64,000 nucleotides of DNA from IMG/VR virus record IMGVR_UViG_3300033066_002303, positions 7,078 through 71,077 of that record; one strand, given 5' to 3'. This DNA is from a virus (taxonomy: Duplodnaviria; Caudoviricetes). The notes under the pieces were generated by a model, which did not search any database, had not been told where the DNA came from, and saw nothing but the letters and a program-made list of their open reading frames with translations. A program made the position numbers and the translations under genes. Of the stretch, positions 815 through 52,486 are shown piece by piece (within the stretch, counting starts at the first letter, position 1; each line of letters opens with the position of its first letter).

Positions 815-1153
815 ATGGATGCACTGGCTAACGTCGTGCTGGTCTCGCTGGCTGCCGCGGCGGCCGTGCACTGCTGGTTCAAAGGCAGCATTTTTGCTGG
901 CGCACGAGACTGGGTGGAGTTCAACCACCACGAATGGTTGATATCAACCGATCAGCCACAGCCCATTGGCCGGCGCGTGGCGCTGTTTCTGGCCGAGCTG
1001 CTGCTCTGCCCGTACTGCCTGACGTTCTGGGTGACAGCCGGCCTGACGCTGACACAGCAGCCTACGCTGCTGGATTTCCTTTGCCGCTGGTGGGCAGCTG
1101 CCGCCCTGGCCACGGCGTACAACGCAGACCTGGCCAGCGGAAACGTGCCATGA
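815..1153 (+). CDS. DUF1360-like membrane protein
   Basis: SD AGGAGG upstream of ATG 815; LLLCPYCLTFWV motif typical of DUF1360; hydrophobic helices. Confidence 0.65.
   Translation: MDALANVVLVSLAAAAAVHCWFKGSIFAGARDWVEFNHHEWLISTDQPQPIGRRVALFLAELLLCPYCLTFWVTAGLTLTQQPTLLDFLCRWWAAAALATAYNADLASGNVP
936..949. repeat. Dispersed palindrome GGTTGATATCAACC, copy 1 (intragenic)
   Basis: Exact match; read as TGG TTG ATA TCA ACC (WLIST). Confidence 0.95.
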
Positions 1154-1467
1154 ACATACCCACCTATTACACCGCCTTTGGCCAACTGGCCGAACAGTTC
1201 GCCGCTACCGCGGTCGACAGCATCGCCGAGCTGGAATCCGTGCTGATCATTCCAACCTGGCAGACGGATCAGCCAGACCTGCCACCGGTCTTTATTCGTG
1301 GCCGCGTGCCCGGCACAGCGCTGAGCACATCAGCCGAAGTGGGCCATACCGCGATCCAGCTGGTGCGCACCTTCCAGATCGTTGTAAACCGCATGGCGGA
1401 TACCGTGATTCAGCTGGACGTCCGCATGGGTGAACTGGCGGCCGCCCTGAAAGCAAGCAATGGCTAA
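1150..1467 (+). CDS. Hypothetical protein
   Basis: ATGA overlap with upstream gene; overlaps downstream ATG. Confidence 0.6.
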   Translation: MNIPTYYTAFGQLAEQFAATAVDSIAELESVLIIPTWQTDQPDLPPVFIRGRVPGTALSTSAEVGHTAIQLVRTFQIVVNRMADTVIQLDVRMGELAAALKASNG

Positions 1468-2104
1468 AACGAAGCAACCCACGGCCAGCCACCCGCAAGC
1501 GCTCTCTGTCGGGGAGCGCGAGACACTGCAACAACTTTGCCAACGCCTCAATCTGCACACCTGGGATGTCCTGATTATTGGAGATGGCTCCGGGACAACC
1601 TGGGACCGGGCCAGTGGCTGGGCCTGCGTGCTGATTGATCGTTACCTGAGTGCCCGCCGCGATTTCTGCGGCGGTGTCAGTTTAGGCAGCATCAACTTTG
1701 CTGAACTGATGCCGTACTTCCAGGCCCTGTTGTGGTATGACCACTTCTACCAGGCAGCCTGGAAAGCGCGGCAATCCTTTCTGCGCGTGACCATCCTGAC
1801 TGACCATAAAGCACTGGTCGACCAGGCCACGCAAGCGGCGGACGACAAACGGCCGTTACCGGCAGCCCAGGAGCCTTTATGGGCGGCCTTCCGGCAACTG
1901 CTCCGGATGGGTTACCTGATTACGTTTGTGTGGCAGCCCCGGGACACGTCGGATATCAACCGGGCTTGTGACATCCTGTCCAAGGATTGTCGTAAGACGG
2001 TGGAAGCTGTCCGGGACAACCTGGACAAACAACGCTGGGTAGACCCGGCCAGTAAAGCGGACACGAATATCTATGACATCAACCCGCTGGTTAAACCTGG
2101 GTAA
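1460..2104 (+). CDS. Ribonuclease HI-like protein
   Basis: RNase H acidic tetrad in context: IIGDGSG, NFAEL, ILTD, NRACD. Confidence 0.8.
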   Translation: MAKTKQPTASHPQALSVGERETLQQLCQRLNLHTWDVLIIGDGSGTTWDRASGWACVLIDRYLSARRDFCGGVSLGSINFAELMPYFQALLWYDHFYQAAWKARQSFLRVTILTDHKALVDQATQAADDKRPLPAAQEPLWAAFRQLLRMGYLITFVWQPRDTSDINRACDILSKDCRKTVEAVRDNLDKQRWVDPASKADTNIYDINPLVKPG

Positions 2105-2609
2105 GCTGGATAATTTCAGCGCAACAACCAGATAACCGGGCGTGTGGTTTTGCTGGCGTTTGCAAAAATGGCCTTCAAAACGCTTCCGGCGGTTGGTTTG
2201 AAGGATTCTATGTCCGGGGCCTCCGGACGACGTAGGAGGCCTAAAATAAACGATTCCTGACCCGGAGCCGTCTGGTAATCATCCCGGACAGCTACCGGGT
2301 CAGTGTATTTCGAAACCAATCAGTTCGCTTCCGGGCGGGTATGGAAACCGCCCGGAACAGGAGTGGATTTTGAGTTTGTTGTTTGGGTACTTACGTCTTG
2401 TCTTCAACAGCCAGGATGGCCGCGGCAGCCGGCCGCGGCCCTCAGGCTGCCGTCTAATAGCAATGCCGTATAGGCATTGCGTTTAGTATGCCACATCTCG
2501 GAGATGTTTTTCAGCCAAAATTTGCGTTTCTCCCCTGTTTTAGGGCACTGAACATTTGCTGTGTACTGCCACATCTCGGAGTTGTCCTTACACTTTTTCC
2601 CCGTGTTTT

Positions 2610-2638
2610 TTGACGTGTACAAATATGACCCATACAAC
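2610..2638 (+). promoter_or_regulatory. sigma70-like promoter candidate TTGACG-N17-TACAAC
   Basis: -35 at 2610-2615, 17-nt spacer, -10 at 2633-2638; upstream of the replication operon. Confidence 0.5.
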
Positions 2639-2732
2639 GCCGGTCATTTTAGACGACTTGTCTAATTTGACGTAAGTGTCTGAAACGTGTGCTGCGTTTC
2701 AGGCCTGCTGCAGCCGGTGATTTGGGGTGGCT

Positions 2733-2746
2733 GGTTGATATCAACC
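2733..2746. repeat. Dispersed palindrome, copy 2 (intergenic, upstream of replication operon)
   Basis: Exact GGTTGATATCAACC. Confidence 0.95.
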
Positions 2747-2796
2747 GCCAGTCGGAGCGCCCGGATTGTCGGCTGTTAATTTGGGGGAGGTGTATA

Positions 2797-3608: not shown

Positions 3609-4810
3609 CGGTAAAAGAACAATTGGAGCAGTTCGCAGCGGTTGCCGCTGGCGGCGAGCGTTATACCGGCGACGCAAAGAAGATCGATCTTCTGCTGACT
3701 TATTTCTGGCTGCGCGAACTGATGCCGACCAAGCTTGGGTTTGCCGAGTTCCTGGCGCAGTACGCCCGCGTGGCGGATTACGACGACACGAACCTCAAGC
3801 ATCCGGCCGATGCCGCCGCCCGCTGGTGCCCCCGGCAAGCAGACAAAGCCAAGCAGTACAACCTGCCGCAATGGACGGCGCGGCAACTGCTGCAGTTTCT
3901 GAGCGGCTGGGTGGATGCGTTGGAAGAGTGCCGCTTGGCAGGGCAGTCGGAGCCGCCAATTACGTTCGCGCAGTTCCTGGAGCGGGTCGGGCCGCAGTTC
4001 CTGTCTGGAGCGCTGACTCCGGCGCCGGTGCAGCCTGCTGAGAAGGAAAAGCGGACGCGCAAGAAGAAGGACGAGGCGGCACCGACACCGGCGCTACCCG
4101 GACAACAGCAACTGCCGTTTACACAGCCTGCGGCGGATGTGACGACGGCCGCGCCGCCCAGCCTGGCGCCGCTGACGACGGGCATTGGCGCGTCTGCGCC
4201 GGTGACGTCTGGCCAAGCGGCGTTTACCGATGAAGAGCTGGCGGCGGTGTCACAACCGACAATACCGCCAAGCGCGCTGCGGCCCACGCAAGCGGGGCAG
4301 CGGGTGCGTGTCACGGTGCCGCGGCCGCTGGGCGCGTCCAGCAATTCGCTGGGCGTTGTGCGCGACATTATCACGGACAACGGCAACATGCAGTACGTGG
4401 ATGTGCAACTGGATGACGGCACGCTGCTGCAGAACGTGGGGATCACCTCTGTTCAGCTGCTGCCGGGCGCAGTACTGCCGCAGACGCCTACGCCGACCTA
4501 CGTAATGTCGGTGGCTGTACCGCCGGACCAAAAACAGGCGTGGACGAACCTGCTGACGCTGACCACCCCGGTACAGAATACGGGGATCATCGCACCGGAT
4601 AACCTGCTGTTCGATCCGATCCCGTTGAAGATTGCCAATACGAACAAGCAGTTCGAGCTGATTATGAGCAACACCGATATGGGCCCCACGCTCGAGGTGG
4701 CGCTGGTGGAATCAGAGAATGAGCTCGTAACGACACCGCCCCGCAAAACGTTGCTGGGGGATTACAACCTGGAATACCAGGGCGAAACCTACCGATTGAC
4801 ATTGCGATGA
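3605..4810 (+). CDS. Hypothetical protein with Pro/Ala linker (true start GTG 3605, not 3017)
   Basis: GTGA overlap with upstream stop; protein-like composition only from VTVKEQLEQF onward. Confidence 0.7.
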   Translation: MTVKEQLEQFAAVAAGGERYTGDAKKIDLLLTYFWLRELMPTKLGFAEFLAQYARVADYDDTNLKHPADAAARWCPRQADKAKQYNLPQWTARQLLQFLSGWVDALEECRLAGQSEPPITFAQFLERVGPQFLSGALTPAPVQPAEKEKRTRKKKDEAAPTPALPGQQQLPFTQPAADVTTAAPPSLAPLTTGIGASAPVTSGQAAFTDEELAAVSQPTIPPSALRPTQAGQRVRVTVPRPLGASSNSLGVVRDIITDNGNMQYVDVQLDDGTLLQNVGITSVQLLPGAVLPQTPTPTYVMSVAVPPDQKQAWTNLLTLTTPVQNTGIIAPDNLLFDPIPLKIANTNKQFELIMSNTDMGPTLEVALVESENELVTTPPRKTLLGDYNLEYQGETYRLTLR

Positions 4811-6249
4811 GCAAACCGCTGATTGCCGTGCTGGGTGATCCCTGCCTGGACCATTATGTGTTCGGGCAGGAGCAGCGCCTGAATCCCGAAGGCGGCGGAC
4901 CACTGCTGGATGTACAGGCGACGGATACGCGACCTGGTGGTGCGTTAAACCTGGCGGCGAACATCGCAGCACTTTGTCCGCTTGCCAACGTGGTGTTTAT
5001 TGGCGGATTGTCTGCTGCACCACCCTGCGTTTGCCCTGGCGTTGATTTTGGTGCGTACGCGCTGCCACAGCCGCAGCTGTATTTGGCCAAAACACGGTTT
5101 TACTCTGGCGGGAATGCAGCCGTGCTGCGTGTAGACGATCGCCCGCGTTACCCGGACGGCGTCGGCAGCCTGGTTTACGAACAACTTGCCCGCTTTCTGT
5201 CACAGCACCAGCCACAACTGGTTGCCGTGGCAGATTACAACAAAGGCTGCGTGAGTGATTCCAGCCAGCGGTTGCTGTCGCAGCTGGCTGCCCTGGGCAC
5301 GCCTGTGCTGGTGGACAGCCGGCCCGCGACTATGGCGGGCTATGAGCACTGTTTATTGAAGCCCAATGCGAAAGAAGCCCGCCAGTACCTGGCCGGGTGC
5401 GTACATCCGGCGGCAGCGTCACACGACGCTGAGGAGCTGGCTATGGTCATGCTGCAGCAGCTGCCCACGGTGCGGGCTGTGGTCTGCACAAACGGCAGTG
5501 CTGCTGCGGGCATAGCCCACCGGTTTCCAGGCGGACCAGCCACACACCGGGCTGCTGTTTTCTGTACTTCGCGTGTGCAGGCCAGTCCTGTTGGCGCTGG
5601 CGACGTCTTTTTGGCGGCGCTGGCTAGTCGCCTGGCGCTGGATCCGGTGCCGTACCAGCAACTACCCGCCGCGGCTGAGTATGCTGCCGCAGCAGCTGCG
5701 GTGTCTGTGGATACGCTGGGTACGGTGATTGTGCCTCTGCACGCGGCCCGGGCAGAGTGGGTCCGCGCCGATCTGCGCCGAAAGGTGCTGGCAGATGCGG
5801 AGCTGATCAGCTGGGCTTATTCCGTGCGGGCCAGTGGCAAGCAGCTGGTGCTGGCCAACGGCTGTTTTGACGTACTGCACGCCGGGCATATGGAATTGTT
5901 GCGGTTTGCGAAAAGCCGGGGCGATGTGCTGCTCGTGGCGGCCAACACGGATGCGTCGGTGACTGCCCTTAAAGGCGCTGACCGTCCGCGGGTGCCGCAG
6001 CAGGTCCGTGCGGAACAGCTGGCAGCGCTGGGCTGTGTCGATGCGGTCACGCTATTTGACGGCAATGTGACCGCACTGGTAGCTGCGACCGGGCCGACAG
6101 TCCTGGTGAAAGGTGGCGATTATGCGAATACGCCACCAGAACAGATTGGCGGTTATGCCCAACTGGCGGCACTGGGCGGGCGGGTGGAATACGGACCATA
6201 CGTGGCCGGGTTTTCTACAACAGCACTGGTAGCGCACCATGGCGGGTAA
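4807..6249 (+). CDS. hldE: Bifunctional heptose-7-phosphate kinase / heptose-1-phosphate adenylyltransferase (HldE/RfaE)
   Basis: PfkB domain (VLGDPCLDHY, PGGALN.AAN, DYNKG, LKPNAKEA, GAGDVF) plus nucleotidyltransferase domain (NGCFDVLHAGH, NTDASV..LKG..RP, LVKGGDY, GFSTT). Confidence 0.95.
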   Translation: MSKPLIAVLGDPCLDHYVFGQEQRLNPEGGGPLLDVQATDTRPGGALNLAANIAALCPLANVVFIGGLSAAPPCVCPGVDFGAYALPQPQLYLAKTRFYSGGNAAVLRVDDRPRYPDGVGSLVYEQLARFLSQHQPQLVAVADYNKGCVSDSSQRLLSQLAALGTPVLVDSRPATMAGYEHCLLKPNAKEARQYLAGCVHPAAASHDAEELAMVMLQQLPTVRAVVCTNGSAAAGIAHRFPGGPATHRAAVFCTSRVQASPVGAGDVFLAALASRLALDPVPYQQLPAAAEYAAAAAAVSVDTLGTVIVPLHAARAEWVRADLRRKVLADAELISWAYSVRASGKQLVLANGCFDVLHAGHMELLRFAKSRGDVLLVAANTDASVTALKGADRPRVPQQVRAEQLAALGCVDAVTLFDGNVTALVAATGPTVLVKGGDYANTPPEQIGGYAQLAALGGRVEYGPYVAGFSTTALVAHHGG

Positions 6250-7027
6250 AGCGGGGCGCCTGGCGTTTGTGACGCTGGCGCAGAATGACGAGCCCTACTT
6301 GTCGCTGTGGGTCCGGCATGCGGTAGATCTGTGTGGCGGTGACTCACAGCACGTCTACGTGCTGGACCACGGCAGTACCGGCGACCACGCTGTAAAGATG
6401 GCGGAGTATGCGCGGCTGGGTGTGCACGTGGTGCCTGTTACGTCGCCCGTCAGTTTCAGCCCGGTGTTTGTAGAATCTACGCTGGCGGCGTACGCGCAGC
6501 AGCTGCAAACTACTCAGCACTATACTGCTGTTATCTATACGGCCGCTGACGAGCTGCTGTTTCTGGTGGAACCAGCGCACCGGGTGCGCAATACAACGTT
6601 TAACGCGCAGTTTGTGCAGCTGGCGCAGCGCCGGGCGATTGCGCCCGCGGCCTATGAGCTGCTGCCTACCGACACGCCGTTCGCGTTTGAGCGCGGGCGG
6701 GTGCTGCGGCAGGGGAATCGTGTGTATCGTTGCCGCAAGTACGCCCGCCGCGGTTTGTGGTTTCCGCCCGAACAGCCCCGCAAGGTGTCCGAGCGGTTGA
6801 TCTTGCTGCACCTGCACAGGGCGGATTTGTTCACAGCGTTGTACCGGCACCAGGAGCGTGCCTTGCGGATCTGGGCGCCAGGTCAGCGGGCAGCGAATAG
6901 CTGGTATGCCCACAACCTGATTACCGAGATTGACCAGCTGCGCCGGTGGGCTGCCTGTAACGCGGATGACACAAGTCAGTTCGCGCAGGCGCACGCCATT
7001 CCTGACGAGTGGGGAGATTGGTTGTGA
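6239..7027 (+). CDS. GT-A (GT2-like) glycosyltransferase
   Basis: NDEPYLSLWVRH, VYVLDHGSTGD, AADELLF (DADE-like); coupled to hldE. Confidence 0.65.
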   Translation: MAGKAGRLAFVTLAQNDEPYLSLWVRHAVDLCGGDSQHVYVLDHGSTGDHAVKMAEYARLGVHVVPVTSPVSFSPVFVESTLAAYAQQLQTTQHYTAVIYTAADELLFLVEPAHRVRNTTFNAQFVQLAQRRAIAPAAYELLPTDTPFAFERGRVLRQGNRVYRCRKYARRGLWFPPEQPRKVSERLILLHLHRADLFTALYRHQERALRIWAPGQRAANSWYAHNLITEIDQLRRWAACNADDTSQFAQAHAIPDEWGDWL

Positions 7028-7788
7028 GTTTGACTACAGCCATTGTGCTGTCTTCGCGGGAGCCGACGGCGCCTGAGTCTCGCTTGCTGCAAGCAGAGAT
7101 CCGGTATGCTTGCGGCGATGTGCAGATCCTGTGGGCGGCAACGGCACAGGATGTTTTTCGGCAACTGGCGGCACAGGTTGACGACGTGCTGGTGCTGACT
7201 GAGCAGTGCTGGCTACGCGGTGCCCGGCTGGGCGCCTGGTGCGCCGATATGTTGGAGCGCGCCCGCGGCGGGGTGATTAGTGCTGACAGCGAGCTGGATA
7301 TTTACGACAAACAGCTGCCGCTGCAGCAAGCCTGCCTGGAGCTGGGCATTGATGTGCCTGGCTGGGTGCCTGGTCAGGTATTGAACAGTCCCCATTTTTG
7401 CGTGCTGGGGGCAACGACAGTGGCTACGCTGGCGGACGCCGGGTGGTTACCGCGGTTAGCCAGCTCAGCTGTTTTTGCGGAGTTGCCGCCGCTGTGCTGG
7501 CTCGGGCTGCTGGCCCAGTTTGCCGGGCAGTACCGGATTGGCGTCGGTACAGCTATTCGGCCGATGTTCCCGTTACTGTTGTTGCCGGACCGGCCCGGTT
7601 ATCTGGCAGTGCCGCCGCAGTTTCTTTCGCCGGACGTGTGGGTGTATGCCCCGTTACGAAATGTCGTGGGGTATAGTGAGCACACGCTGCGCAAGATTGC
7701 GCAGACCTTGCGGGGAGAAGAATCTGTGGAAGGGTGGGTAAAGCAACAAGTCACGATCCATCAACCAGAAGGTGTGTATGGCGGCTGA
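7024..7788 (+). CDS. Hypothetical protein, possibly a degenerate GT-A fold
   Basis: GTGA overlap; weak resemblance only. Confidence 0.5.
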   Translation: MSLTTAIVLSSREPTAPESRLLQAEIRYACGDVQILWAATAQDVFRQLAAQVDDVLVLTEQCWLRGARLGAWCADMLERARGGVISADSELDIYDKQLPLQQACLELGIDVPGWVPGQVLNSPHFCVLGATTVATLADAGWLPRLASSAVFAELPPLCWLGLLAQFAGQYRIGVGTAIRPMFPLLLLPDRPGYLAVPPQFLSPDVWVYAPLRNVVGYSEHTLRKIAQTLRGEESVEGWVKQQVTIHQPEGVYGG

Positions 7789-8221: not shown

Positions 8222-9393
8222 CCCGTACGGTGCTTGCCGTATTTTCTGCTGATACGCATTTGCAGCCTGCCGCCTGGACGAGTGAGCCCGAACTGTGCGG
8301 CGATGCGTTGTACAGTTTTGAACAGCTGTGTGCCCAGGCGGCGCACTACGGCGTGCCGCTGATTTTGGGTGGCGATATTTTTGATCGTAACCGGCCCGAT
8401 CCGCAGACGGTGGCGGCCTTCGTGCGCACGCTGCAGCAGTACAACATACGGCTGCTGTATGTGCAGGGTGACCACGACTACGACCAGACCGCGGCCTGGC
8501 CGAGTCTGTATAACAACGCGATTGCACTGCAGATACAGGCGGTTAATCTGAATCCGCGTGTGTGCGTTGCCGGCGTTGATTTTCACACGGCCGATAAGCT
8601 GCCGGCGGCATTGGCCGGGGTTCCGCCTCAAGCCACGTTGCTGGTAACCCACCAGGCTTGGGGGGAATTGCGGCCTGTCGGCGCCACTGCTGGCCGGTGC
8701 AGTGACTTGGTCCCCGGACATATCCGGTACGTATTGTCTGGCGATACGCACCTGTATCGCCAGTTGCAGACAACGAATGCAGCCGGCGGGCCGGTAACAC
8801 TGGTCTCTCCGGGCTCGACTTGTATGCAGGATATCGGAGAACCGCGGGACAAAGTGGCTGTGCTGGTCTGCGAGGACAGTACGAATACGGCAGCGCCACT
8901 CGAGTTTGTGCCTGTACCGCTGGTTACGCGGCGCATGCAGCACGTGCATTTGCTGGAAGAAGCAGACTTGGACGAGTTCTGCCGGCAGGACTGGGCAAGA
9001 CTGGCAGCCCAGCAGGCGGCAGCCGTGGCTGCGGCTGGCGCGCCTGTTGGCGTGCAGAAGCCGATTTTGCGCGTCAGTTATATGAGCACGCTGACACGCC
9101 CGATGCCGCGGATCCAGGCGGCAGTCGGGAACAGCTTTTTCCTGTTTCTGTCGGCGCTGGCACCCGAGCAGGAAACGGGAATTACTGTCACTGCCGAAAT
9201 GTTGGCAGGGCATGCGACCGCCCGTGACGAGCTGGCTGCCGTGGCAAATGCCGTGTCTGCGCCCGGCTCGCTACAGCACGGGCATATTCTGAAGCTGTTA
9301 GCAGCCACGGACAAGAAGGATGTCGACAGGTTAGTGACCGAGGTTGTGGAAGAGTTCACTGCGCAATTTACTGAGGCAACATGCAGCTCCTAG
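8218..9393 (+). CDS. sbcD: SbcD/Mre11-like metallophosphoesterase nuclease
   Basis: ADTHL, GGDIFD, GDHD, SGDTH, SPGS motifs; adjacent to an SMC-like ATPase. Confidence 0.9.
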   Translation: MTRTVLAVFSADTHLQPAAWTSEPELCGDALYSFEQLCAQAAHYGVPLILGGDIFDRNRPDPQTVAAFVRTLQQYNIRLLYVQGDHDYDQTAAWPSLYNNAIALQIQAVNLNPRVCVAGVDFHTADKLPAALAGVPPQATLLVTHQAWGELRPVGATAGRCSDLVPGHIRYVLSGDTHLYRQLQTTNAAGGPVTLVSPGSTCMQDIGEPRDKVAVLVCEDSTNTAAPLEFVPVPLVTRRMQHVHLLEEADLDEFCRQDWARLAAQQAAAVAAAGAPVGVQKPILRVSYMSTLTRPMPRIQAAVGNSFFLFLSALAPEQETGITVTAEMLAGHATARDELAAVANAVSAPGSLQHGHILKLLAATDKKDVDRLVTEVVEEFTAQFTEATCSS

Positions 9394-11528
9394 ATATTGA
9401 ACTGTGCAACATCGGACCGCGCCGGCGGTTCAAGCACAACTTCTCGCCAGGGATTACCGCGATTACGGGCGAAAACGGCACGGGCAAGTCCATGCTGTTC
9501 GAGTCCGTACGCTGGTTGTTGACTGGCGATTACCCGCACCGCGACGGTAAAGAGGCGTCTATTTTTCAGCTGGCTTCGCCGGATGAGAAGGCCTATGGCG
9601 TTCTGCGGTTTGCGCACCGTGGCGTGGAAGCTACGGTGACGCGCTATGCGCGCCCAGAGACTACGAAAGACCGACTGGTGCTCAAAGACCAGACGGTTAA
9701 CGGCAGTACGCGTGTCAATGCAGTCCTCAGCGATTTGCTGGGGCTGGACGTGCCCACGCTGAACGATGTGGTGATTGTTGGCCAGGATGATCTGCACGGG
9801 TTTCTGGCAAAAACGGAAGCGCGCCGTGCGGAGATTTTACAGCGGCTGTTCCGTACAGCGATTGTGAATGACATCTACGCGCAGCTTGGTGAGCGCCTGG
9901 CTACGCTACCGGCACTGTTGCCCATGCAGTCAGTGGAGATGGCTGTCGACGCGGTACGCCGGGCGGAGACGCAATTGGCCCAGTTGCCGGGCGGCGCGGT
10001 TGATATCAACCAACTGCAACTGCGCGTGAGTGCGGCGCAGGCGTTGTTTGACCAGGGACGGCTGGCCCTGGATGTCCAGGTGCAGCAGTATCAAGCTGAG
10101 GGCAAGCGCCACGAGCTGGCGGATACTCAAATCCCTGCGGCGGCCGCGGCAGACATTGCGGCCCAACAAGCTGTAACCAGCACAGAAGCACAGCTGGCGT
10201 CGCTGACACAGGCTGCGCAAGAAGTGACTGCAATTCAGCAGGAACAGGCCCTGGCGCGGAGCATGGCTGCCGCGCTGGATGCGGCTGCGCAACGGCTCCA
10301 GGCACTGACAGCTTCGCGAAATGCCGCTACGGCAGAAGCTGCCAAGTACCCACAACCCGATCTAGCCCAGCGACCGGATCCAGCCTGGGAAATGGGGCTG
10401 GAAGTGCAACTGGCGGCCGACAACAAGTTTCTGGCAGCCTACGCCGGAAAGTCGACGGGGGTTTGCCCGACCTGCGGGCAAGCGACGCCATTTCCTGCAG
10501 AAGAGCTGGCTGCTACGAAACAGCGTGTGGCAGAGAATGCGAATCGCTTACAGCAGTTGCGGCGGGACCGGGCGGCTTATGCGCAAGCCGAGCAGCTGTG
10601 GCAAACGCACCAGCAGCAAGTGACGTTGCTGGAAGCGCAGGTACAACAGGCGCAAACAGCTTTTCAGCAAATGCCGCCCACGTTCACTGCCCGGGAGTTA
10701 CCGCCGAACAGTGCCGAGCTGTTACGCGATGTGCAGACACTGCAGTCCCGGCTGCTACAGCAACGTGCCAATGCCAGGACTGCAGCGCAGCGTGTGGCCA
10801 CGTTACAAGCAGAGCTGGCACATGTGACGCAAGAACTATCTCGGCTGACGCAGCAATTAGCGCAGCTGCCAGCTGTGACACCGGCTGCCGTTCAGTTGCG
10901 GCAGCAAGAGCTGGCACAATTACAGGCAACGTTCGCGCAGGCGCAACAGGAGCAGGCGTTGCGTGATCAGGCGGCATTGGAGCTGCGTGTGTGCCAGCAA
11001 CGGCTGCAAGAGGCGCAACAGGCGCAGCAGCAGCATGCGCAACGTGAGGCTTTGCGCGAGTATTTGCGACAACTGCGTGACGTGTTCCACAAAGATGCGT
11101 TGCCGCGGGCGGTGATTACCAGAAAGCTGGCTTTGCTGGAAACAGCAGTAAACCAGACGCTGGCTGCGTTCGATACGCCGTTTTTCATCAAGGCGACGAA
11201 CAACTATTCGCTGCTGGCCAAGTTCCACGATGGCCGGTCGCAACCAGCCCCCGCACTATCCGGCGGGCAGAAGGTTATCCTCAGTCTGGCTTTTCGGCTA
11301 AGCTTGAATTTACGGGCGGTGCCCGAGCTGGGTTTTATTGCGCTGGACGAGCCGACAGCTGCTCTGGATAACAAACGGGTAGAAGCCCTTGTGCCGTTCT
11401 TTCGCCACTTACGCCAGTTCGCGGCAGACAACCAGCTGCAGTGCCTCATCGTGACGCACGAGCAAAAACTGGCCCCTATTTTTGATGATGTGATCCGATT
11501 AACGCATGACAATTCTGCCTCAGGATGA
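9381..11528 (+). CDS. sbcC: SbcC/Rad50-like ATPase
   Basis: Walker A GENGTGKS, coiled coil, zinc hook CPTCG, signature LSGGQ, Walker B LDEPT, H-loop VTHE. Confidence 0.93.
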   Translation: MQLLDIELCNIGPRRRFKHNFSPGITAITGENGTGKSMLFESVRWLLTGDYPHRDGKEASIFQLASPDEKAYGVLRFAHRGVEATVTRYARPETTKDRLVLKDQTVNGSTRVNAVLSDLLGLDVPTLNDVVIVGQDDLHGFLAKTEARRAEILQRLFRTAIVNDIYAQLGERLATLPALLPMQSVEMAVDAVRRAETQLAQLPGGAVDINQLQLRVSAAQALFDQGRLALDVQVQQYQAEGKRHELADTQIPAAAAADIAAQQAVTSTEAQLASLTQAAQEVTAIQQEQALARSMAAALDAAAQRLQALTASRNAATAEAAKYPQPDLAQRPDPAWEMGLEVQLAADNKFLAAYAGKSTGVCPTCGQATPFPAEELAATKQRVAENANRLQQLRRDRAAYAQAEQLWQTHQQQVTLLEAQVQQAQTAFQQMPPTFTARELPPNSAELLRDVQTLQSRLLQQRANARTAAQRVATLQAELAHVTQELSRLTQQLAQLPAVTPAAVQLRQQELAQLQATFAQAQQEQALRDQAALELRVCQQRLQEAQQAQQQHAQREALREYLRQLRDVFHKDALPRAVITRKLALLETAVNQTLAAFDTPFFIKATNNYSLLAKFHDGRSQPAPALSGGQKVILSLAFRLSLNLRAVPELGFIALDEPTAALDNKRVEALVPFFRHLRQFAADNQLQCLIVTHEQKLAPIFDDVIRLTHDNSASG
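9998..10011. repeat. Dispersed palindrome, copy 3 (inside sbcC)
   Basis: Exact match; read as GTT GAT ATC AAC (VDIN). Confidence 0.95.
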
Positions 11529-14799: not shown

Positions 14800-16467
14800 G
14801 TGCCCCCCACACCAAATAATCGCGCTATCGATCTTGTGCTGGATGCGCAGCGGACACAGGCGACACAGGCCGCCATCACGCAGCTGGATATGGATATGCT
14901 GTGTGCGTACTGGGCACGGCGACCGTTGTTCCTGGCGGAGTCGCGACAGCATATTCGTCCGGAGTTATTTGATCCTGTCAGAGAAGCGCATTACCAGCTG
15001 CTGTTTTCGGTGCTGTGCGATCTGCAGGATCGGAAGATCGATGTTACGCTGCTTTCGGTGCTGCAAGCTGTGCACGATCGCATGGCGCAGCATGGAGCAA
15101 TGCTGCTGACCCCCCAACAGCAGGCAGACCTGTTACGCCAGGATGATCACGGCATCGTGTACATGGTGTTCGTGACAATCCAGGACTCGTTCATGTCGCT
15201 GAGCCATGCGCGGGCCCTGTTGCAGAAGTTCTTGCAAGAGCGGGCAATCGCCAACCCGTTACGACGGCTCCTGGCGCAAGGGACCAACGGGGCTTATCTG
15301 ACCGCGTTGCCAGCCGTGCTGGAGTTTGCCAGCAATCAGGCTAGTCGGCTGCAGGGGATTGCCCGCCCGTTGCCGACGCCGCTGATGCCGTTGCCTGGGG
15401 CGGTACTGACGCCGCCGTCTGTGTTCGAGCAGACCGGGATTGGCTTTGTGGACAAGCCGCTGGGTGGCCAACGACAGGGCGACAGTAACGCAATCGTAGG
15501 TCCGTTCGGGGGCGGTAAATCTACGCTGGCGTCGCAGTTTATCTGCTCCGCCGCCCGGCTGGAGTATGCTGACGCGTACTTGCATAACCGCACTCCGCGG
15601 TACTCTGTGCTGTTTACGTACGAAGAGCCTCGTGAAAAGGCCTGGCCCCGGCTGGTCTCGATGGCCACTAAAATCCGCCGAGACAAGCTGGAAGCGCTGT
15701 CCGACTGGAGCATGCTGACCACACAGCAAAATATGGAGCAGTACGAGCGTTCCCTGACACAAACGGCCGGCCAGCAACTGTCTGAGTCGGAGCGTTACCA
15801 GGCCAATATGCCTTGGGTGAATACCTGTATCCGCGTGTTCGACATGTCCGGTTCGGGCAGTGAGAACAACGGCGGATCTGGCGGTATTGCCGAAATTGCG
15901 GCGTGCTTGCAGCGTCTGGTCGACGAGACCGGCTGCGGCATCCGGACCGTGGTGATCGACTACGCGGAAATCGCCTGTCGCCGCTATATGAGCGCCAGAA
16001 ACTGGCCGGAAGAGCGCTTGCGGCACCTGCTGACCTCGTGGGGTGATGAAGTCCGCATGCAGATTTCTGAGCGGTTTCGTTGCGCTACGTGGTCCTTGCA
16101 GCAGGCGACCGGCGAGGCAAACAAGTACCCGCCCTGGAAGCTGCTGACAATTGCTGACATCAAGGAATGTCGGGCGTTTGCAGAAAACCTGGCGGTGTGC
16201 GGTTGTATCGGCGTGGAAGACCCGACAACCGGGTGTCGTTATATCAACTGGGCCAAGATGCGCTACCGACCGAAAACGTCAGCGCCGCCATCGCTCGTTA
16301 AAGTGCACCCGCAGTGGGCAGAACTGATTGACGTGAGCGATCGGTACCAGCTGGACGAGATCGGGCGGCGGTTTGAAGAGCGGACACAGATGCGACGACT
16401 GCAGGGCGGTGATGCGCTCCTGTCGGCGCCGCAGCAAGGGCTGGCCCTGACGCCAGTCGGGACGTGA
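14800..16467 (+). CDS. DnaB-like (SF4) replicative helicase
   Basis: Walker A GPFGGGKS, FTYEE, Walker B VVIDY, SLQQ; next to primase. Confidence 0.8.
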   Translation: MPPTPNNRAIDLVLDAQRTQATQAAITQLDMDMLCAYWARRPLFLAESRQHIRPELFDPVREAHYQLLFSVLCDLQDRKIDVTLLSVLQAVHDRMAQHGAMLLTPQQQADLLRQDDHGIVYMVFVTIQDSFMSLSHARALLQKFLQERAIANPLRRLLAQGTNGAYLTALPAVLEFASNQASRLQGIARPLPTPLMPLPGAVLTPPSVFEQTGIGFVDKPLGGQRQGDSNAIVGPFGGGKSTLASQFICSAARLEYADAYLHNRTPRYSVLFTYEEPREKAWPRLVSMATKIRRDKLEALSDWSMLTTQQNMEQYERSLTQTAGQQLSESERYQANMPWVNTCIRVFDMSGSGSENNGGSGGIAEIAACLQRLVDETGCGIRTVVIDYAEIACRRYMSARNWPEERLRHLLTSWGDEVRMQISERFRCATWSLQQATGEANKYPPWKLLTIADIKECRAFAENLAVCGCIGVEDPTTGCRYINWAKMRYRPKTSAPPSLVKVHPQWAELIDVSDRYQLDEIGRRFEERTQMRRLQGGDALLSAPQQGLALTPVGT

Positions 16468-20600: not shown

Positions 20601-20877
20601 GGAGCGCCCAGCGCTTGATTATCGCTTGCTTTTACAGATCCATGACGCCATCCTGTTCGAGGTTCGCTGGGACTGCGTCAATGAGTTCGTGCGTGTGGCG
20701 GCGCCGGAATGCATGGTCCGCCGCGTACCAGTCTGGCCGCGTTATCTGGACGGGTCGTTTATGCCCGTGACGCAGCCGTATTTTTTCTCAATCGACAAAG
20801 AGATTTGTGTCAACTGGGGCGAGCCGATCACCGAGGCGGAAGCCGTGGCGATGGGTATCGATCCCGAACTTGTCTGA
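17608..20877 (+). CDS. polA: Family A DNA polymerase with N-terminal uracil-DNA-glycosylase-like domain and 3'-5' exonuclease
   Basis: UDG-like (MLIGKHPG, VGPS, TNLVK, PDYILCLG, HPAY); Exo (FDGE, ADL, YSASD); Pol motifs A DYTGAEL, B AKNVNFGVPYG, C QIHDA. Confidence 0.95.
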   Translation: MIDVSYAQQLFQSLLQNTEPSPALDKFFPWVPLNDYGMPLPGPNFTATAVRAGDPAPTIEGTGAKKHCLAFGPRLHYLYRRALYDSNSVLTVDVKGVPKPTSMVPGHLLGGNAYACNGGPRPAKVMLIGKHPGIEELAQSSNLVGPSSEELWKAMEAIGLSPADYNDWYATNLVKWPNLDPHSDGLPKAWINDCRPLLEMEIRICQPDYILCLGSDSSKALLGTSCGVEAMNGRVMHYSYPSELTEDGWTIKTAKVMTSVHPAYVSRRPELFDSFKDQLALFVRLAGGGDVGGEEKDVVRHYVYSERRLAALVDAALADPEQQFMAFDGEWHGQHPQDENAYLRTIQFSTQHKQAVTVVLRHQGGAPAFIPNIAAAIRQLKRLTTPVPGQWEPRVGGHFFRADLPWLLHEGLDLRDQYAPHPDPAVRDCGGWDTSLLYHAVNETASFKLEDIAMRLTSMPRYDVQLQRWKKIACKILDEEEKTLEGYGMAPDEILHPYSASDADATRRIAKKLLQADPDTGQLTLRDSYGNDCWLPYWISHSASLAFLEMEMTGILVDFARVDSLTAQFMQVYEQLLAWFRKQINWEQSAPDAPVKHSGFNPNSSGHAKAFLFGDKFATRKDPVTKLQIPIRPPTAMTLGLTPIKSTGRRPKLWEVLQRRGELSGVSPSTDKETLGILGQKHPLAMTLRDLKFISQVLKSVLRRPNINKETGEPETTEEGFWEYDDGLVVYAGHDGRVRTHIYQTKETGRCSSARPALQCISKRREDDYRRILGYYDKKKKQDEGTYKQLYPAQYAHPLRSVLRATPGYVLVECDYTGAELAVIAWLSGDQNMIEHVRRNALPEDHPEFFDIHSQTAVRVFHLDCPPTKKGLKDAGFSGMRVAAKNVNFGVPYGRGAEAIARQCREEGVDVTPEQTQAVINFYFEQYPGTAKFLQQCRDGVVNPGWLSTAFGRLRRFTRSYDKSVLGEQERSAMNAPIQGTVADAVYRALAHLRAYRQERPALDYRLLLQIHDAILFEVRWDCVNEFVRVAAPECMVRRVPVWPRYLDGSFMPVTQPYFFSIDKEICVNWGEPITEAEAVAMGIDPELV

Positions 20878-22713: not shown

Positions 22714-22732
22714 TTGCTTGTCGTGTTTCTGG

Positions 22733-22760
22733 GTGCTGCGGTTGATATCAACCGCAGCAC
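22733..22760. repeat. Dispersed palindrome, copy 4, extended to a 28-bp perfect palindrome
   Basis: GTGCTGC-GGTTGATATCAACC-GCAGCAC between the SSB-like gene and recA. Confidence 0.95.
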
Positions 22761-22784
22761 TGACTTTTCTACGGTGGACGTGTT

Positions 22785-24808: not shown

Positions 24809-25969
24809 ATGGTTGATACCGTTGTTCAGCCGCTGTTCGTTTTTCCTGAACTGCAGCGCTACGCTGTTAAGCAGCGCGGTGATTTTGAAACCGCGCTGCG
24901 AAAGCAGGCTGTCTCCGGCTCGCGGGTCCAACTCTCAGACCCGCGAGACCTGGAGCTGCAACCGAACGGCGTTACGCGGCGCTGGTCATTTCGCTTTACG
25001 TGGCCCGCCTTCGTAAAGGTCAGCTCCTTGTTGTGCCGCGGACTGGCGGCCACTGTGGCGGACCTGGCCGGGATCCGGTTGATATCAACCAACAAAACAA
25101 CGCAGGCGCCGCTGTTCGACGCCACAGAAGCGGTGACCGTATTCAACCGCGCGTTGTATTTGCGGTTCGATCAGATCGCTACGAATAACGTGCTGCTAGA
25201 CCGCCACCAGCGCGTCATCGACGGTATCTTTTCACCGCAACACCAGTTGCTTACGAACTGGTCTTCCTATAACCTACTCGCAGAACGCTTGCAGCATGCG
25301 GATGCGCAGTGCGCGTTCTACGCCGGCCGGATGCAGGGTCGGCGTATGCAGGTCTGGTTTCGCGACACACAGCCACTGTTCTCGTTTCCGTATAACGGTA
25401 CGAACTGGCAAGCGTGGTACGGCTACTTTATGGCCAACGCCGAGACCGCCAATGGCGCTGTCGGCGTGGAGCCGGTGTTGTACACACCTGCCGGTGTGTG
25501 TCGTCTACCAATACCCGGGCTGGGTGTTACCCGCGTCCGCCACGCCGGCCGCAAGTTTCAGCAGTCGCTGGACAGCATGCTGGAGTCTGCTGTTGCGTGG
25601 GGGCGTGATGTGACTGGCTGGCGCGAGCGGATGTTTGCACTATCGCAACAGCCGCTGTGCTCGGCTGATTACGTGTTCGATCGAAGTGCGATGACGCGAG
25701 ATACAGACTGGCTGCGGTCGGCGATGAAGGTTCCAGCTGTTGTCGCCAGGGCAGCTATTTCGCGTGCAGTGGTGCGTCGGGACGTCAAGGACGGCGGCTT
25801 AGACTTGTCTGAAATGGGGTCAGTGACGCCTCACGGACGTACTCGGTTGGATTTTTACTGCGGGTTGTGCGAGACAGCCCGGCGCTGCGCTCCGACACAC
25901 CGCGCGCGGCTGGAGAACTTTGCTGGAAAAATCCTGTTGGCGGAAACCTGGCCGCCACTGTTTTCATGA
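24809..25969 (+). CDS. Hypothetical protein, weakly DUF932-like
   Basis: Intact 386-aa ORF in the operon; the DUF932 resemblance is tentative. Confidence 0.6.
   Translation: MVDTVVQPLFVFPELQRYAVKQRGDFETALRKQAVSGSRVQLSDPRDLELQPNGVTRRWSFRFTWPAFVKVSSLLCRGLAATVADLAGIRLISTNKTTQAPLFDATEAVTVFNRALYLRFDQIATNNVLLDRHQRVIDGIFSPQHQLLTNWSSYNLLAERLQHADAQCAFYAGRMQGRRMQVWFRDTQPLFSFPYNGTNWQAWYGYFMANAETANGAVGVEPVLYTPAGVCRLPIPGLGVTRVRHAGRKFQQSLDSMLESAVAWGRDVTGWRERMFALSQQPLCSADYVFDRSAMTRDTDWLRSAMKVPAVVARAAISRAVVRRDVKDGGLDLSEMGSVTPHGRTRLDFYCGLCETARRCAPTHRARLENFAGKILLAETWPPLFS
25077..25090. repeat. Dispersed palindrome, copy 5 (intragenic)
   Basis: Exact match; read as CGG TTG ATA TCA ACC (RLIST). Confidence 0.95.
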
Positions 25970-36175: not shown

Positions 36176-37069
36176 ATGGACGAAAGTTACCCCGAAGATT
36201 CGGGGGATATTGTGTACCCGGCGGGGCTAAAACCGCTGACCGTTAAATCGGTACGGCGTGGTTTGCGGTTGCCGGAATCGTTTTTGGGTGTCGCCGGCGG
36301 CGGGGTAGTAGTGCCCCTGGCGGACAGAAAGAATTCTGATCGCTTGTATTTGCAGCAGCGTGACGATGCGACAGATAACCACATGATTCAACTGGATCCG
36401 CAGCACGGCGGACCGAAACTGACTAGCCGCGAACGGGCTGAAATTGTGCGCCGGACAGGAAGGGATTGGCTCAGCATGTCGTACGACCAGCTTACGCAAA
36501 TGTTGACAGAGATCCGGGCGAACACTGCGCCCGCAGCCAAGCAGGCCAGCGACGCGGCGGGGCTTGCCGCTATCCTGCCGTCACCGGCGCCCGTTACACC
36601 GCCGCAGCCCCCGGTAATGGCTGCTCCGACGCCTGCCCGGCCCCCGGCGCCCGTGCAGCGGTTTCGTCAGTCTCTGTTTGACCGGGCTGAGTCTGCTGCG
36701 GCCGCGGCTGCGGCGCGTGCGGCTGCCCCGCCGACAACGCCAACAACCGCTGTCGTGCCGACGGTTAACTTGCAGCTGGATATCGGCGGCTGGTTGCAGC
36801 TGGACGTGCAGTGTCATTACTGGCAGGAGTATGACAACCAGCTGGTGTTGATCTATGACGACAGTCAGCAGATCAAGCCGTCGATCCCGACCCGGACGGC
36901 TGATACGCCAGCAGAGGCGCTGGCTATCCAGATTAGCGGGCAGCCGCGGATCTACGTTGTTCAGCCGGCGCCGCCACCGTTAAACTGGAATGGCTACACG
37001 TTCTACTTTTTGCCGATTGTCGACATTGTAGACGATACGGTCGGCGATCCAACCGCCGCCGACGGTTGA
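36176..37069 (+). CDS. Hypothetical protein with Pro/Ala linker
   Basis: ATG 36176; its TGA stop lies inside palindrome copy 6. Confidence 0.65.
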   Translation: MDESYPEDSGDIVYPAGLKPLTVKSVRRGLRLPESFLGVAGGGVVVPLADRKNSDRLYLQQRDDATDNHMIQLDPQHGGPKLTSRERAEIVRRTGRDWLSMSYDQLTQMLTEIRANTAPAAKQASDAAGLAAILPSPAPVTPPQPPVMAAPTPARPPAPVQRFRQSLFDRAESAAAAAAARAAAPPTTPTTAVVPTVNLQLDIGGWLQLDVQCHYWQEYDNQLVLIYDDSQQIKPSIPTRTADTPAEALAIQISGQPRIYVVQPAPPPLNWNGYTFYFLPIVDIVDDTVGDPTAADG

Positions 37070-37077
37070 TATCAACC
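37064..37077. repeat. Dispersed palindrome, copy 6 (overlaps a stop codon; 16 bp before the portal-like gene)
   Basis: Exact match. Confidence 0.95.
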
Positions 37078-37093
37078 AGTATACAGGTGCGCG

Positions 37094-46222: not shown

Positions 46223-46239
46223 TTTCTGCTGTTTGCTTT

Positions 46240-47887: not shown

Positions 47888-47889
47888 CC

Positions 47890-50216: not shown

Positions 50217-50734
50217 ACTGCGCAGTGCTGCCTCAACTCAGTTATATTCTGCAGCGCGATATTGCGGCCGTGACAGAGCTGGAGCAGCAACTTTTTGAAA
50301 GTCCGTGGACGCGGGATGAGCTGGTTGCGCGCTTGCGGCGTCCGAGCACCCTGTCGATGGCTGCCCGGTTAGCGCGCGGCGGTCCGATTGTGGGCTATGT
50401 GCTGTGGTCGTTGTGCGCAGATGCGGGCTGCAAAACAGCGGAGATCTTGCGTATCGGCGTGGCTCCGGAATATCGTCGACAGGGCATCGGCGCGGCACTG
50501 CTGAGCGCGCCGCTGGCCCGTTTGCGTCGTCGTCCGGTAGCAGAGGACTGCCGCGTACAAATTGCGGTCACCGACCGTGATCTGGCGGTGCACCTGTTTT
50601 TGAAAAATAACGGCTTCGTGGCTGAGCGTATTTTGCCAGAGCACGCGGCAGACGGCAGCGACAGCTATATGTTCGTGTGCCGCAGAAAGGATTCGCATCA
50701 TGCACGTCACGTTCGGCTCAATCCTGGTCAATGA
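50213..50734 (+). CDS. RimI-like GNAT acetyltransferase
   Basis: LEQQLFESPWT, EILRIGVAPEYRRQGIGAALL, LFLKNNGF. Confidence 0.85.
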   Translation: MNCAVLPQLSYILQRDIAAVTELEQQLFESPWTRDELVARLRRPSTLSMAARLARGGPIVGYVLWSLCADAGCKTAEILRIGVAPEYRRQGIGAALLSAPLARLRRRPVAEDCRVQIAVTDRDLAVHLFLKNNGFVAERILPEHAADGSDSYMFVCRRKDSHHARHVRLNPGQ

Positions 50735-51524
50735 ATCCGAATACTTGCTGGATTCGCTGCAGCAGCATTACCAGTTCTGTGATCGCTGGGTGCTGGTTGA
50801 AGGTGCCGATCGCCGCTATCCTGCCGCGACAGCGGACGGGTTGTCGCGCGACAACTCTGCGGAGATCATCCGCAACTTCCCTGACCCGGACAAGAAGCTG
50901 AAGTTCATTCAGCACGGCTGGGCGGAGAGTAAGCAGGAGTTGCGCAACCGCTACCTGGAGCACACCCCGGAAGGGATTCTGGTGGTGATCGATATCGACG
51001 AATTTCTGACACACCGCGATATGCGGGAAGTTTTACAAGCACTGCGTGTTGTGGAGGGTTACGGTTGTCTGTGCATTCCGCATGTGCATTTCTGGAAAAC
51101 GGATGCATCCATCATTACGGGCAAGTATTACGACGTGCCCCACAACCGCTGCTACCGGCTGCCGTCGGGGTGCCGGTACAAGGGCGACCACAATCACCCG
51201 GAGCTGCCGTCCGGCGAGTTTGTGCATGCCCAGAAGCACCTGCGCTGGGATCGCCGCTTGGTGCCGGCAGCGACTGGGACACCTGCGGTTTGTCACGCTG
51301 GCCCAGCCTGGCTGCACTATGGGTTTTGCAAAGACCCATCGAACATCCAGGCCAAGAATGACTACTATATTTCCCGCGGAGAGGCGAAATCGCGGCCCGT
51401 GACAACTGAAAGTCGGGCGGCGTGGTTCGCTGAGCAGTTGCCGCCCGGGTTGCTCGTGCAGCGCTGGGCCGGGCAACGACCCGAGGTGTTTGTAGCAAAA
51501 GGCGCAGAATGGCCACAATTGTAA
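50700..51524 (+). CDS. GT2-family glycosyltransferase
   Basis: ILVNESEYL, SRDNSAEII, VIDIDEFL, WLHYGF. Confidence 0.8.
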   Translation: MHVTFGSILVNESEYLLDSLQQHYQFCDRWVLVEGADRRYPAATADGLSRDNSAEIIRNFPDPDKKLKFIQHGWAESKQELRNRYLEHTPEGILVVIDIDEFLTHRDMREVLQALRVVEGYGCLCIPHVHFWKTDASIITGKYYDVPHNRCYRLPSGCRYKGDHNHPELPSGEFVHAQKHLRWDRRLVPAATGTPAVCHAGPAWLHYGFCKDPSNIQAKNDYYISRGEAKSRPVTTESRAAWFAEQLPPGLLVQRWAGQRPEVFVAKGAEWPQL

Positions 51525-52486
51525 CCGGGGCAGAAGGGCAGGACGGCCTGCTGTTAATCCAGTTGCTGCTGGAACACACGACGGGCTTTAAGATCGTAGC
51601 CGTTGTGCGGCCAAAAGGCAGCCAGGGGTTGCGGGCCGAGCTGGCTGCTCAAGTGGTCCTGGGCCGCGGCCGGGTTGTCATAGAAACGGTTGATATCAAC
51701 GACCCGGCCGCGGTGTACCGCCTGGTGGAAACGCACCGGCCGAAAGAACTGTACCATCTGGCGGCGCAGTCGTTTGTGGGCACCAGCTACGACAACCCGG
51801 GCCACACGTTCAGTGTGAACGCTGTGGGTACGCTGAACGTGCTGGAAGCTGTCCGGCAGGGTTGCCCGGAAACAAAGGTGTACGTCGCGGCGACCAGCGA
51901 GATGTTTTCTGGCGCCCCGGAGACAGCCCCGCAGCATGAGCTGACACCGCTGGATCCGCAAAGCCCGTACGGCGTATCGAAAGTCGCTGCTTACCAGCTG
52001 GCCCGGATCTACCGGCAAGCTTATCAGCTGCGAGTCTGGTGCGGGATCCTGTTCAATCACGAGAGCCACTTGCGGGGCAGCCAGTTTGTCACGCAGAAGA
52101 TTGCGCAAGCGGCCGCACGCATCTACAAGCAGCAGCGGCACCAGTGGCTGTTGCTGGGCAACCTGGACGCCTGTCGTGATTGGGGTTATGCGCCGGAGTA
52201 TGTGCGCGGCATGGTCCAGATGCTGCAAACGGAGACCCCGGACGATTACGTGCTGGCCACCGGTGTTACAACGTCAGTGCGGGACTTTGCCAAGCTGGCA
52301 TTTGCTGCGGTAGATTTGGACTGGACAAAATACGTGCAGGTGGACGCCGCCCTGGTGCGCCCGACGGAAGTGCGTGTGCTGCGTGGCAACGCAGAGAAGG
52401 CCCGACAACAGCTGGGCTGGACGCCAGAAACAGACGTGGCGCAGCTGGCACAAATCATGGTGAGTGCAGCACTGGCAACCGTATGA
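51509..52486 (+). CDS. gmd: GDP-mannose 4,6-dehydratase
   Basis: VTGAEGQDG, YHLAAQSFV, ATSEMF, PQSPYGVSK, GILFNHES, FVTQKI, LGNLDACRDWGYAPEYV. Confidence 0.95.
   Translation: MATIVTGAEGQDGLLLIQLLLEHTTGFKIVAVVRPKGSQGLRAELAAQVVLGRGRVVIETVDINDPAAVYRLVETHRPKELYHLAAQSFVGTSYDNPGHTFSVNAVGTLNVLEAVRQGCPETKVYVAATSEMFSGAPETAPQHELTPLDPQSPYGVSKVAAYQLARIYRQAYQLRVWCGILFNHESHLRGSQFVTQKIAQAAARIYKQQRHQWLLLGNLDACRDWGYAPEYVRGMVQMLQTETPDDYVLATGVTTSVRDFAKLAFAAVDLDWTKYVQVDAALVRPTEVRVLRGNAEKARQQLGWTPETDVAQLAQIMVSAALATV
51688..51701. repeat. Dispersed palindrome, copy 7 (13/14; perfect 12-bp core, inside gmd)
   Basis: GGTTGATATCAACG; read as VDIND. Confidence 0.8.

Follow-up and report, generated by a model that had tools for sequence, protein, structure and literature searches.

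Dispersed 16-bp Dyads in a Jumbo-Phage Genome Fragment as Putative Recognition Sites of a Two-Fold Symmetric DNA-Binding Protein

Introduction

What maintains one and the same palindrome, GGTTGATATCAACC, at scattered points of a viral DNA, inside genes as well as between them? The question is raised by a stretch of 64,000 nucleotides from a virus of the Caudoviricetes (Duplodnaviria), hereafter the window, which comprises bases 7078-71077 of the IMG/VR record IMGVR_UViG_3300033066_002303 (G000; 71,077 bp). The record is ~35% complete according to CheckV, its relatives measure 197-205 kb, and G000 is, on these sequence grounds, a fragment of a jumbo phage of ~200 kb. The answer to which we give slightly better than even weight is that the 16-bp dyad in which the palindrome is embedded, YGGTTGAT / ATCAACCR, would be recognized by a DNA-binding protein that is specific for this sequence, has two-fold symmetry and is most likely encoded by the phage itself, and that the sites would form an array dispersed over the whole genome, rather than a set of operators or a centromere.

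Abundance and Form of the Site

The window contains six exact copies of GGTTGATATCAACC, at 936, 2733, 9998, 22740, 25077 and 37064, and one copy with 13 of the 14 bases at 51688, and no more are found in it when up to two mismatches are allowed. An eighth copy, again 13/14, lies outside the window at record position 3971, ~250 bp 3′ of the large-terminase gene, and thus six of the eight copies are perfect across the 14 bp. Shuffled sequence would be expected to yield 0.12 sites of this type, and none of 100 shuffles reached seven; the shorter core TGATATCA, for which 0.23 occurrences are expected, appears seven times in the window and always within the motif. Every window site is flanked by C or T on the left and by A or G on the right, so that all 14 half-sites read YGGTTGAT, and the palindrome that characterizes the record is a degenerate 16-bp dyad, YGGTTGATATCAACCR, which occurs about once per ~9 kb and is a perfect 16-mer palindrome at site 22740 only. 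Single GGTTGAT half-sites, with 8-9 copies, are found at chance frequency, which shows that selection acts on the full dyad. Among the palindromes of the record no other comes near it in over-representation, and bare GATATC, the sequence at its centre, is not avoided in G000 (30 copies against ~16-20 expected). An earlier note on this DNA, made from the letters alone, had reported the same copies at the same positions, the pyrimidine and purine that extend them to 16 bp, the confinement of the core palindrome to full sites, and a frequency far above chance, and the recount agrees with it on all four points.

The same phage was recovered from at least 11 independent assemblies (JGI, ENA, Logan), ten of them 99.2-99.9% identical and one 93.8%, and sites 22740 and 25077 are full 16-mers in each assembly that spans them; an assembly artefact, which the note had named among the refuting outcomes, is thus discarded. 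A full-text query of the literature with TTGATATCAA returned cloning primers only, and in the IMG/VR viral contigs the exact motif gave, among the matches listed, scattered single matches only.

Selection at the DNA Level

Four of the sites are inside genes, and they are read in two frames, as L-I-S (936 and 25077) or as V-D-I-N (9998 and 51688). The codons required for the former are scarce in G000, where ATA accounts for 5% of the isoleucine codons, TCA for 9% of those for serine and TTG for 21% of those for leucine. When synonymous codons were shuffled, a mean of 2.2 twelve-mers remained against the 7 observed, and this remainder corresponds approximately to the non-coding copies, which are not shuffled; in other words, almost no coding copy is regenerated under the codon-shuffled null that the note had proposed. 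The use of two frames, the rare codons and the loss on codon shuffling together exclude a protein motif, as had been argued previously from the two frames and from the TTG-ATA-TCA codons of two copies. The sites are selected at the level of the DNA itself, overriding codon preference.

Arrays of Differently Spelled Palindromes in Related Phages

Relatives were located through their DNA polymerase and terminase proteins. With the fusion of uracil-DNA-glycosylase, exonuclease and polymerase carried by G000, eight IMG/VR loci were found that share 45-48% identity with it, and 37 further loci were reached from a relative's terminase; comparison with cultured phages by megablast and tblastn revealed no close relative. 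The exact G000 motif is absent from the relatives' loci found by polymerase. What several of them possess are palindromes of their own, centred on GATATC and present in 13-42 copies per genome. The phage G001 (197 kb, 96% complete, L140-L149) carries CAWTGATATCAWTG, with 31 TGATATCA cores; G002 (204 kb, terminal repeats, 100% complete, L129-L139) has 42 copies of AWAGATATCTWT, a spelling that recurs in G006, G011 and G015; and G004 presents a looser array of WWGATATCWW. Measured by this last motif, the relatives with strong arrays reach 20-28 occurrences per 100 kb, G008 (L238-L248) and G009 (L258-L268) an intermediate 5-9, and G003, G005, G007, G012, G013 and G014 only 0-4.

Regarding their distribution, the sites never cluster, the minimum spacing being 610-1800 bp, and in G002 they are more evenly spaced than random (coefficient of variation 0.55, with none of 5000 simulations as low), while in G001 the evenness is weak (P 0.03). 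Non-coding DNA makes up ~8% of the relatives' genomes, yet it holds 11 of the 21 sites in G001 and 12 of the 42 in G002; the remaining sites are inside genes, in all three frames and at any position, and the following start codon may be as much as 1.7 kb away.

G001 and G002 are sister phages with 50-98% protein identity. At orthologous positions, between identical flanks, the site has been rewritten symmetrically, from CTGCGG-TTTGATATCAAA-TCGCGC in G001 to CTGCGG-AAAGATATCTTT-TCGCGC in G002; in two genes the peptide N-D-I-I or N-D-I-N has become K-D-I-Y at the same codons, and half-and-half hybrid sites are also present. The intergenic sites mostly keep their position between the two phages, among them the site behind the terminase gene, where convergent genes meet, while those within coding sequence mostly turn over. 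Such symmetric respelling points to many sites in cis that would have followed one changing, fast co-evolving reader with two-fold symmetry.

G000 stands at a considerable distance from these phages, with core proteins 21-53% identical to those of the G001/G002 type, and its site is longer, richer in GC (YGGTTGATATCAACCR) and about half as dense. In the terminase and polymerase trees, strong arrays appear in two places, namely the clade of G001, G002, G006, G011 and G015, and G004, which is situated beside G008, G009 and G005, phages whose arrays are weak or lacking. This distribution, together with its patchiness, indicates that the array has been gained or lost repeatedly. When the sites of G004 are mapped onto G008 and G009, both of them complete genomes in which the candidate gene discussed below is absent, what is found is mostly decayed sequence, with versions carrying one or two mismatches, and the weak sites of these two phages may be the remnants of an eroding array.

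A Symmetric Reader and the Search for It

The simplest explanation for a family of dyad-symmetric sites selected in the DNA is a dimeric protein, as the earlier note had suggested for G000 from its sequence; the lineage-specific spellings around a constant GATATC core and their symmetric rewriting strengthen it, and the flanks of the sites would agree with it. In four of the seven window sites the outer pair is C...A, which is non-complementary, and in G002 either A or T may adjoin the AGATATCT core, independently on its two sides, with T...T as the commonest pair; flanks that vary independently and without complementarity suggest that duplex DNA is read half-site by half-site, rather than that RNA is paired. 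Each monomer would thus read the outermost 4-5 bp on its own side of the dyad, these being the positions that differ between lineages, and the AT-rich GATATC centre would be kept for its shape or bendability. The array would then serve the genome as a whole, through loading, anchoring or coating by the protein, with compaction, protection or the blocking of transcription as possible outcomes, and it would be the density of sites that is maintained, their position relative to genes being free. Free positions, maintained density, absence of clustering and tolerance within genes favour such a genome-wide role over the control of promoters.

Several results weigh against this interpretation. Firstly, the record is incomplete, and the spacing of its eight sites does not differ from random. 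Secondly, three lineages that by UvsX are nearer to G000 (37-42%) than are G001-G005, namely L178-L180, have no array in their replication modules (16-21 kb), and consequently the link between G000 and the G001/G002 group rests on the shared GATATC core and not on continuous inheritance. Finally, no helix-turn-helix, ribbon-helix-helix or ParB protein was detected by Pfam and PHROGs among the ~50 proteins of the window, and neither these nor repressor-type families were detected by Pfam among 200 proteins of G001 (up to 420 aa), an inventory that includes two sigma-70 region-4 proteins, DUF1016_N, HNH and CsrA.

Two candidates for the binding protein were rejected. The one proposed earlier, the gene at 25977-26810, whose orthologues match DUF1016_N, is also present in the array-free G003, G005 and L178-L180, and does not track the array; the G001 gene 27698-27970 appeared to be array-specific by BLAST, but a search with hidden Markov models finds a homologue in G005.

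A third gene remains. When the genes of G001 were profiled against 12 relatives, the one at 15601-16350 (gene-23) was alone in being present in all five other genomes with strong arrays and in none of the seven with weak or no arrays, and a profile search of 16 records detected it in six of six genomes with strong arrays but in 0 of 9 relatives without them. Its protein, of 249 aa, belongs to no Pfam family, and its identity among the array phages is only 32-39%, against 60-80% for the neighbouring genes, so that it evolves at a far higher rate than they do. The AlphaFold model, with a mean predicted local distance difference test (pLDDT) of 84, consists of an alpha/beta domain and an 80-residue antiparallel coiled-coil hairpin, strongly basic, whose net charge is +4 to +10. 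No similar fold was found by Foldseek in the PDB at E≤0.001 or in the Atlas, and VIA-align returned generic coiled coils only, with Z ~8. In predictions of the pairing of two copies the protein passed, scoring 0.50 against 0.22 for the best control, with the interface at the hairpin tips; among proteins of solved structure, 20 of 30 same-chain pairs attain this mark, and 1 of 23 single chains does. In the runs for gene-23, made with a custom alignment, at least 75% of the contacts agree and the partner pLDDT is at least 83. This modelling supports a dimer, and does not extend to DNA binding.

The gene-23 family is large (970 clusters at E≤0.001), and its distant members have no Pfam match, except one that is fused to a methyltransferase domain. 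Three distant homologues are located in stretches of 12-21 kb without any enriched palindrome, which weakens the candidate, and no homologue was found in the 71 kb of G000, a record that is 35% complete, which also counts against it. Gene-23 is therefore a weak lead as the reader of the array. The wider scenario that it could open, in which the family would be a new kind of DNA-binding protein that loads at palindromes, marks or coats the whole chromosome and passes by horizontal transfer from one jumbo-phage lineage to another, each arrival being followed by the build-up of a fresh array, seems rather unlikely on the distribution and models available.

Comparison with Known Dispersed Sites

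The nearest parallel is found in the Cluster O mycobacteriophages (Corndog), with 34 invariant 17-bp dyads within and between genes, mostly away from promoters and of function not known (PMC4351075). As in G000, a near-invariant inverted repeat is present in many copies, both intergenic and intragenic and not tied to promoters, and this is a likeness of descriptive class, not of homologous family; moreover, the Cluster O positions are largely common to relatives, and the binder is likewise not known (PMC4351075). However, the Cluster O dyad is built as 7-3-7 with a spacer, belongs to siphoviruses of Mycobacterium of ~70 kb and keeps one spelling throughout the cluster, whereas the sites of the G000 group have no spacer, are less dense (1 per ~9 kb in G000), belong to genomes of ~200 kb and are spelled by lineage around a fixed GATATC. 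The earlier description of the system as undescribed was thus too strong, since dispersed dyad repeats had already been published for these mycobacteriophages (PMC4351075). What is new here is the distant lineage with a longer and GC-richer spelling, the negative results for partition, tyrosine integrase and methylase families, the distribution over two lineages and one candidate gene that can be tested.

If the sites were indeed the docking points of one protein, they would constitute a system in cis and trans that prevails throughout a virus of 200 kb over the choice of codons and in places over that of the amino acids themselves, and in which the array has been respelled repeatedly in the course of evolution. 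The similar dyad arrays of mycobacteriophages have been without explanation since 2015, and a second example, much larger, widespread and with several spellings, makes the question testable: the respelled sites of the sister phages are natural controls of specificity, and gain and loss among close relatives narrow the candidate genes down to a few. With an answer it would be seen whether loading sites of defined sequence serve large lytic phages to organize their chromosomes, to protect them or to silence them, in the way known from KorB on plasmids but by means of different proteins.

Alternative Explanations

Some of the alternatives depend on protein families that can be searched for. In six-frame searches the ParB_N domain (PF02195) and the ParA-type ATPase (PF13614) gave no match in G000, G001, G002, G003 or G004, with 11 of 14 and 14 of 14 controls positive, respectively. 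In G000 and four relatives the same kind of search finds neither a tyrosine integrase (PF00589), in a search that did not extend to serine integrases, nor a D12 (PF02086) or N6/N4 (PF01555) methyltransferase, in a search that did not extend to endonuclease families; the controls scored in both cases.

The alternative that survives best, although we regard it as unlikely, is that the sites are global operators or roadblocks of transcription, at which a regulator would block or time the one-directional string of genes. The model for this is provided by the stoperators of Cluster A mycobacteriophages (L5, Bxb1), of which 20-30 are dispersed over each genome, mostly away from promoters, and whose spelling co-evolves with that of the binder, a repressor (PMC6550527). 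The concentration of sites in the small non-coding fraction of G001 and G002 is in accordance with this, as is the retained position of most intergenic sites, including that at the convergent junction by the 3′ end of the large terminase; in addition, site 22740 falls within a terminator-like hairpin, and in G001 three of the four promoter-like elements GCTAAA-N16-GGGCATAT have a site just upstream. However, in G002 this is true of only one of six such elements, and most sites are inside genes, at any position and with up to 1.7 kb to the following start codon, without clustering. Furthermore, stoperators are asymmetric and oriented with transcription, and they are bound by a known immunity repressor in temperate phages that have an integrase or parABS (PMC6550527), whereas in every genome examined here the sites show two-fold symmetry, and no tyrosine integrase, ParA or ParB was found, nor any repressor-type family in the Pfam inventory of G001.

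The promoter-like element itself, GCTAAA-N15-17-GGGCATAT, precedes genes of the relatives repeatedly (at 80939, 95822, 103013 and 164022 in G001, in six places in G002 and at 69483 in G004), and none was seen in the window; the relatives also code for two sigma-70 region-4 proteins.

A second possibility, which we consider improbable, is that the sites are the substrates of a symmetric enzyme, either a nuclease or nickase that would seed recombination-dependent replication, or a site-specific DNA-modifying enzyme. The exactness of the copies, without any with two mismatches, is of the kind seen with restriction enzymes, and the core coincides with the EcoRV sequence, GATATC. The replication block also contains SbcCD-like and UvsX-like recombination proteins together with sugar-nucleotide and glycosyltransferase genes, and three glycosyltransferase genes are common to G000, G001 and G002 and missing in the array-free G003 and G005. 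Nevertheless, G004 has an array without those glycosyltransferases, the methyltransferases mentioned above are lacking in G000 and four relatives, no nuclease could be linked to the sites, and double-strand cutting at the palindromes would fragment the genome.

Within the replication string there are HldE-like sugar-kinase/cytidylyltransferase and glycosyltransferase genes (4807-7788, 51509-52486 and 53889-54578), and a glycosylation of the DNA by their products is possible from their sequence. Among the relatives, L165, L278 and G001 encode a protein with the N-terminal domain of dATP/dGTP diphosphohydrolase (MazZ-like), a MazG domain and CsrA, and in the window a PRA-PH/MazG-like gene (29707-30216) adjoins ThyX (28550-29704); from their sequence, these genes could point to a changed supply of nucleotides or to bases that are modified.

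The reader could also belong to the host, for instance as a factor of the nucleoid or of the cell cycle, like the host proteins that read the chromosome-organizing sites matS, SBS (SlmA) and NBS (Noc), in which case the phage would gather the site that its host reads. We assign little probability to this. Different spellings in sister phages and patchiness among close relatives are what host switches would leave behind, and no phage binder was found; yet the constancy of GATATC across very distant phages, with polymerases 46-48% identical, is easier to obtain through one homologous family of phage proteins, and strong-array status in 15 relatives coincides with one accessory gene of the phage.

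It is very improbable that the motif acts in RNA, folded into a 5-bp stem closed by an AUAU loop, as a signal for processing or termination. Nearly all genes are on the plus strand, with the large terminase as the exception, and each site would consequently be transcribed, and one of them does form a strong hairpin with a T-run. At 22740 the neighbouring bases lengthen the dyad into a palindrome of 28 bp without mismatch, gtgctgc-GGTTGATATCAACC-gcagcac (22733-22760), followed by GACTTTTCT, and the RNA fold has -27.8 kcal/mol (z -4.05); from its sequence it looks like an intrinsic terminator. Such an extension is peculiar to this site among those of the window, and the features of an intrinsic terminator, a GC-rich hairpin and a U-run at the end of a gene, are found there alone, four other sites being intragenic. 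The extended stem and T-run at one of eight sites only, the 5-bp stem at the others, the stem letters, which are fixed within each genome and show no covariation, and the non-complementary outer positions noted above all count against an RNA function.

The least credible of the alternatives, a centromere or silencer of the ParABS or KorB type, is favoured by a dyad of parS-like length (~16 bp, YGGTTGATATCAACCR), spread at the kilobase scale like the 16-bp palindromic OB sites of KorB on RK2, some of them far from promoters, which are loading sites for action at a distance (PMC11790492), but KorB is a CTPase clamp of the ParB family, and ParB_N and AAA_31 are negative in G000 and in its two near-complete relatives while control genomes scored. 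The resemblance to parS and matS that had been put forward from the sequence is thus supported in part only, by the form of the site, and a specific tie to these systems or to segregation is not supported, as neither ParB_N, ParA nor tyrosine integrase is found in G000, G001 or G002, and there is no clustering.

Individual Sites and Gene Context

The seven sites of the window are collected in Table 1. Two of them, 2733 and 22740, are clearly intergenic, as had been stated earlier, and they do precede the replication string and the UvsX/RecA-like gene, respectively; the same statement does not apply to 936, which is inside an open reading frame (ORF) that has a DUF1360-like match and whose homologue in a relative is syntenic, nor fully to 37064, which carries the stop codon of the upstream gene. 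The gene that follows 37064, conserved and of 609-644 aa, begins 17-120 bp downstream of the site; it had been labelled a portal gene, a label left without confirmation by Pfam and PHROGs, which gave no match. Site 22740 is placed between the gene 20887-22713 and the UvsX/RecA-like gene 22785-24215.

Table 1. Positions, sequences and surroundings of the dyad sites in the window.
Site	Position	Sequence	Context
1	935..950	TGGTTGATATCAACCG	Inside ORF 815-1153 (DUF1360-like); W-L-I-S-T via TTG-ATA-TCA
2	2732..2747	TGGTTGATATCAACCG	Intergenic, upstream of the hldE/sbcCD/replication gene string; flanks lengthen the dyad imperfectly
3	9997..10012	CGGTTGATATCAACCA	Inside SbcC/Rad50-like gene 9381-11528; V-D-I-N
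4	22732..22761	CGGTTGATATCAACCG	Perfect 16-mer at 22739-22754, at the tip of a hairpin with a 13-bp stem; T-run after
5	25076..25091	CGGTTGATATCAACCA	Inside conserved gene 24809-25969, no assigned function; R-L-I-S-T, rare codons
6	37063..37078	CGGTTGATATCAACCA	Gene 36098/36176-37069 ends on the TGA of the site (stop codon)
7	51687..51702	CGGTTGATATCAACGA	13/14 copy; inside GDP-mannose 4,6-dehydratase gene 51509-52486; V-D-I-N

Around site 2733 there is a region of ~690 bp (2104-2796) without a convincing ORF, unusual in a tightly packed genome, which also holds a hairpin at 2460-2480. No tRNA genes were found in the window. In G002 there is a second repeat, ACTGCTAGGTACCGAA, with ~9 copies and no relation to the GATATC palindrome.

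The gene of the large terminase (gpA-type ATPase) is on the minus strand, from window positions 1-297 on to record position 4225, and is the sole conserved gene of opposite strand in all relatives; in G000 its product reaches 1049 aa, against ~640, through an intein with a LAGLIDADG homing endonuclease. The fusion by which relatives were located (17608-20877; 1089 aa) joins a uracil-DNA-glycosylase-like domain, a 3′-5′ exonuclease and a family A DNA polymerase, and it is present in all relatives.

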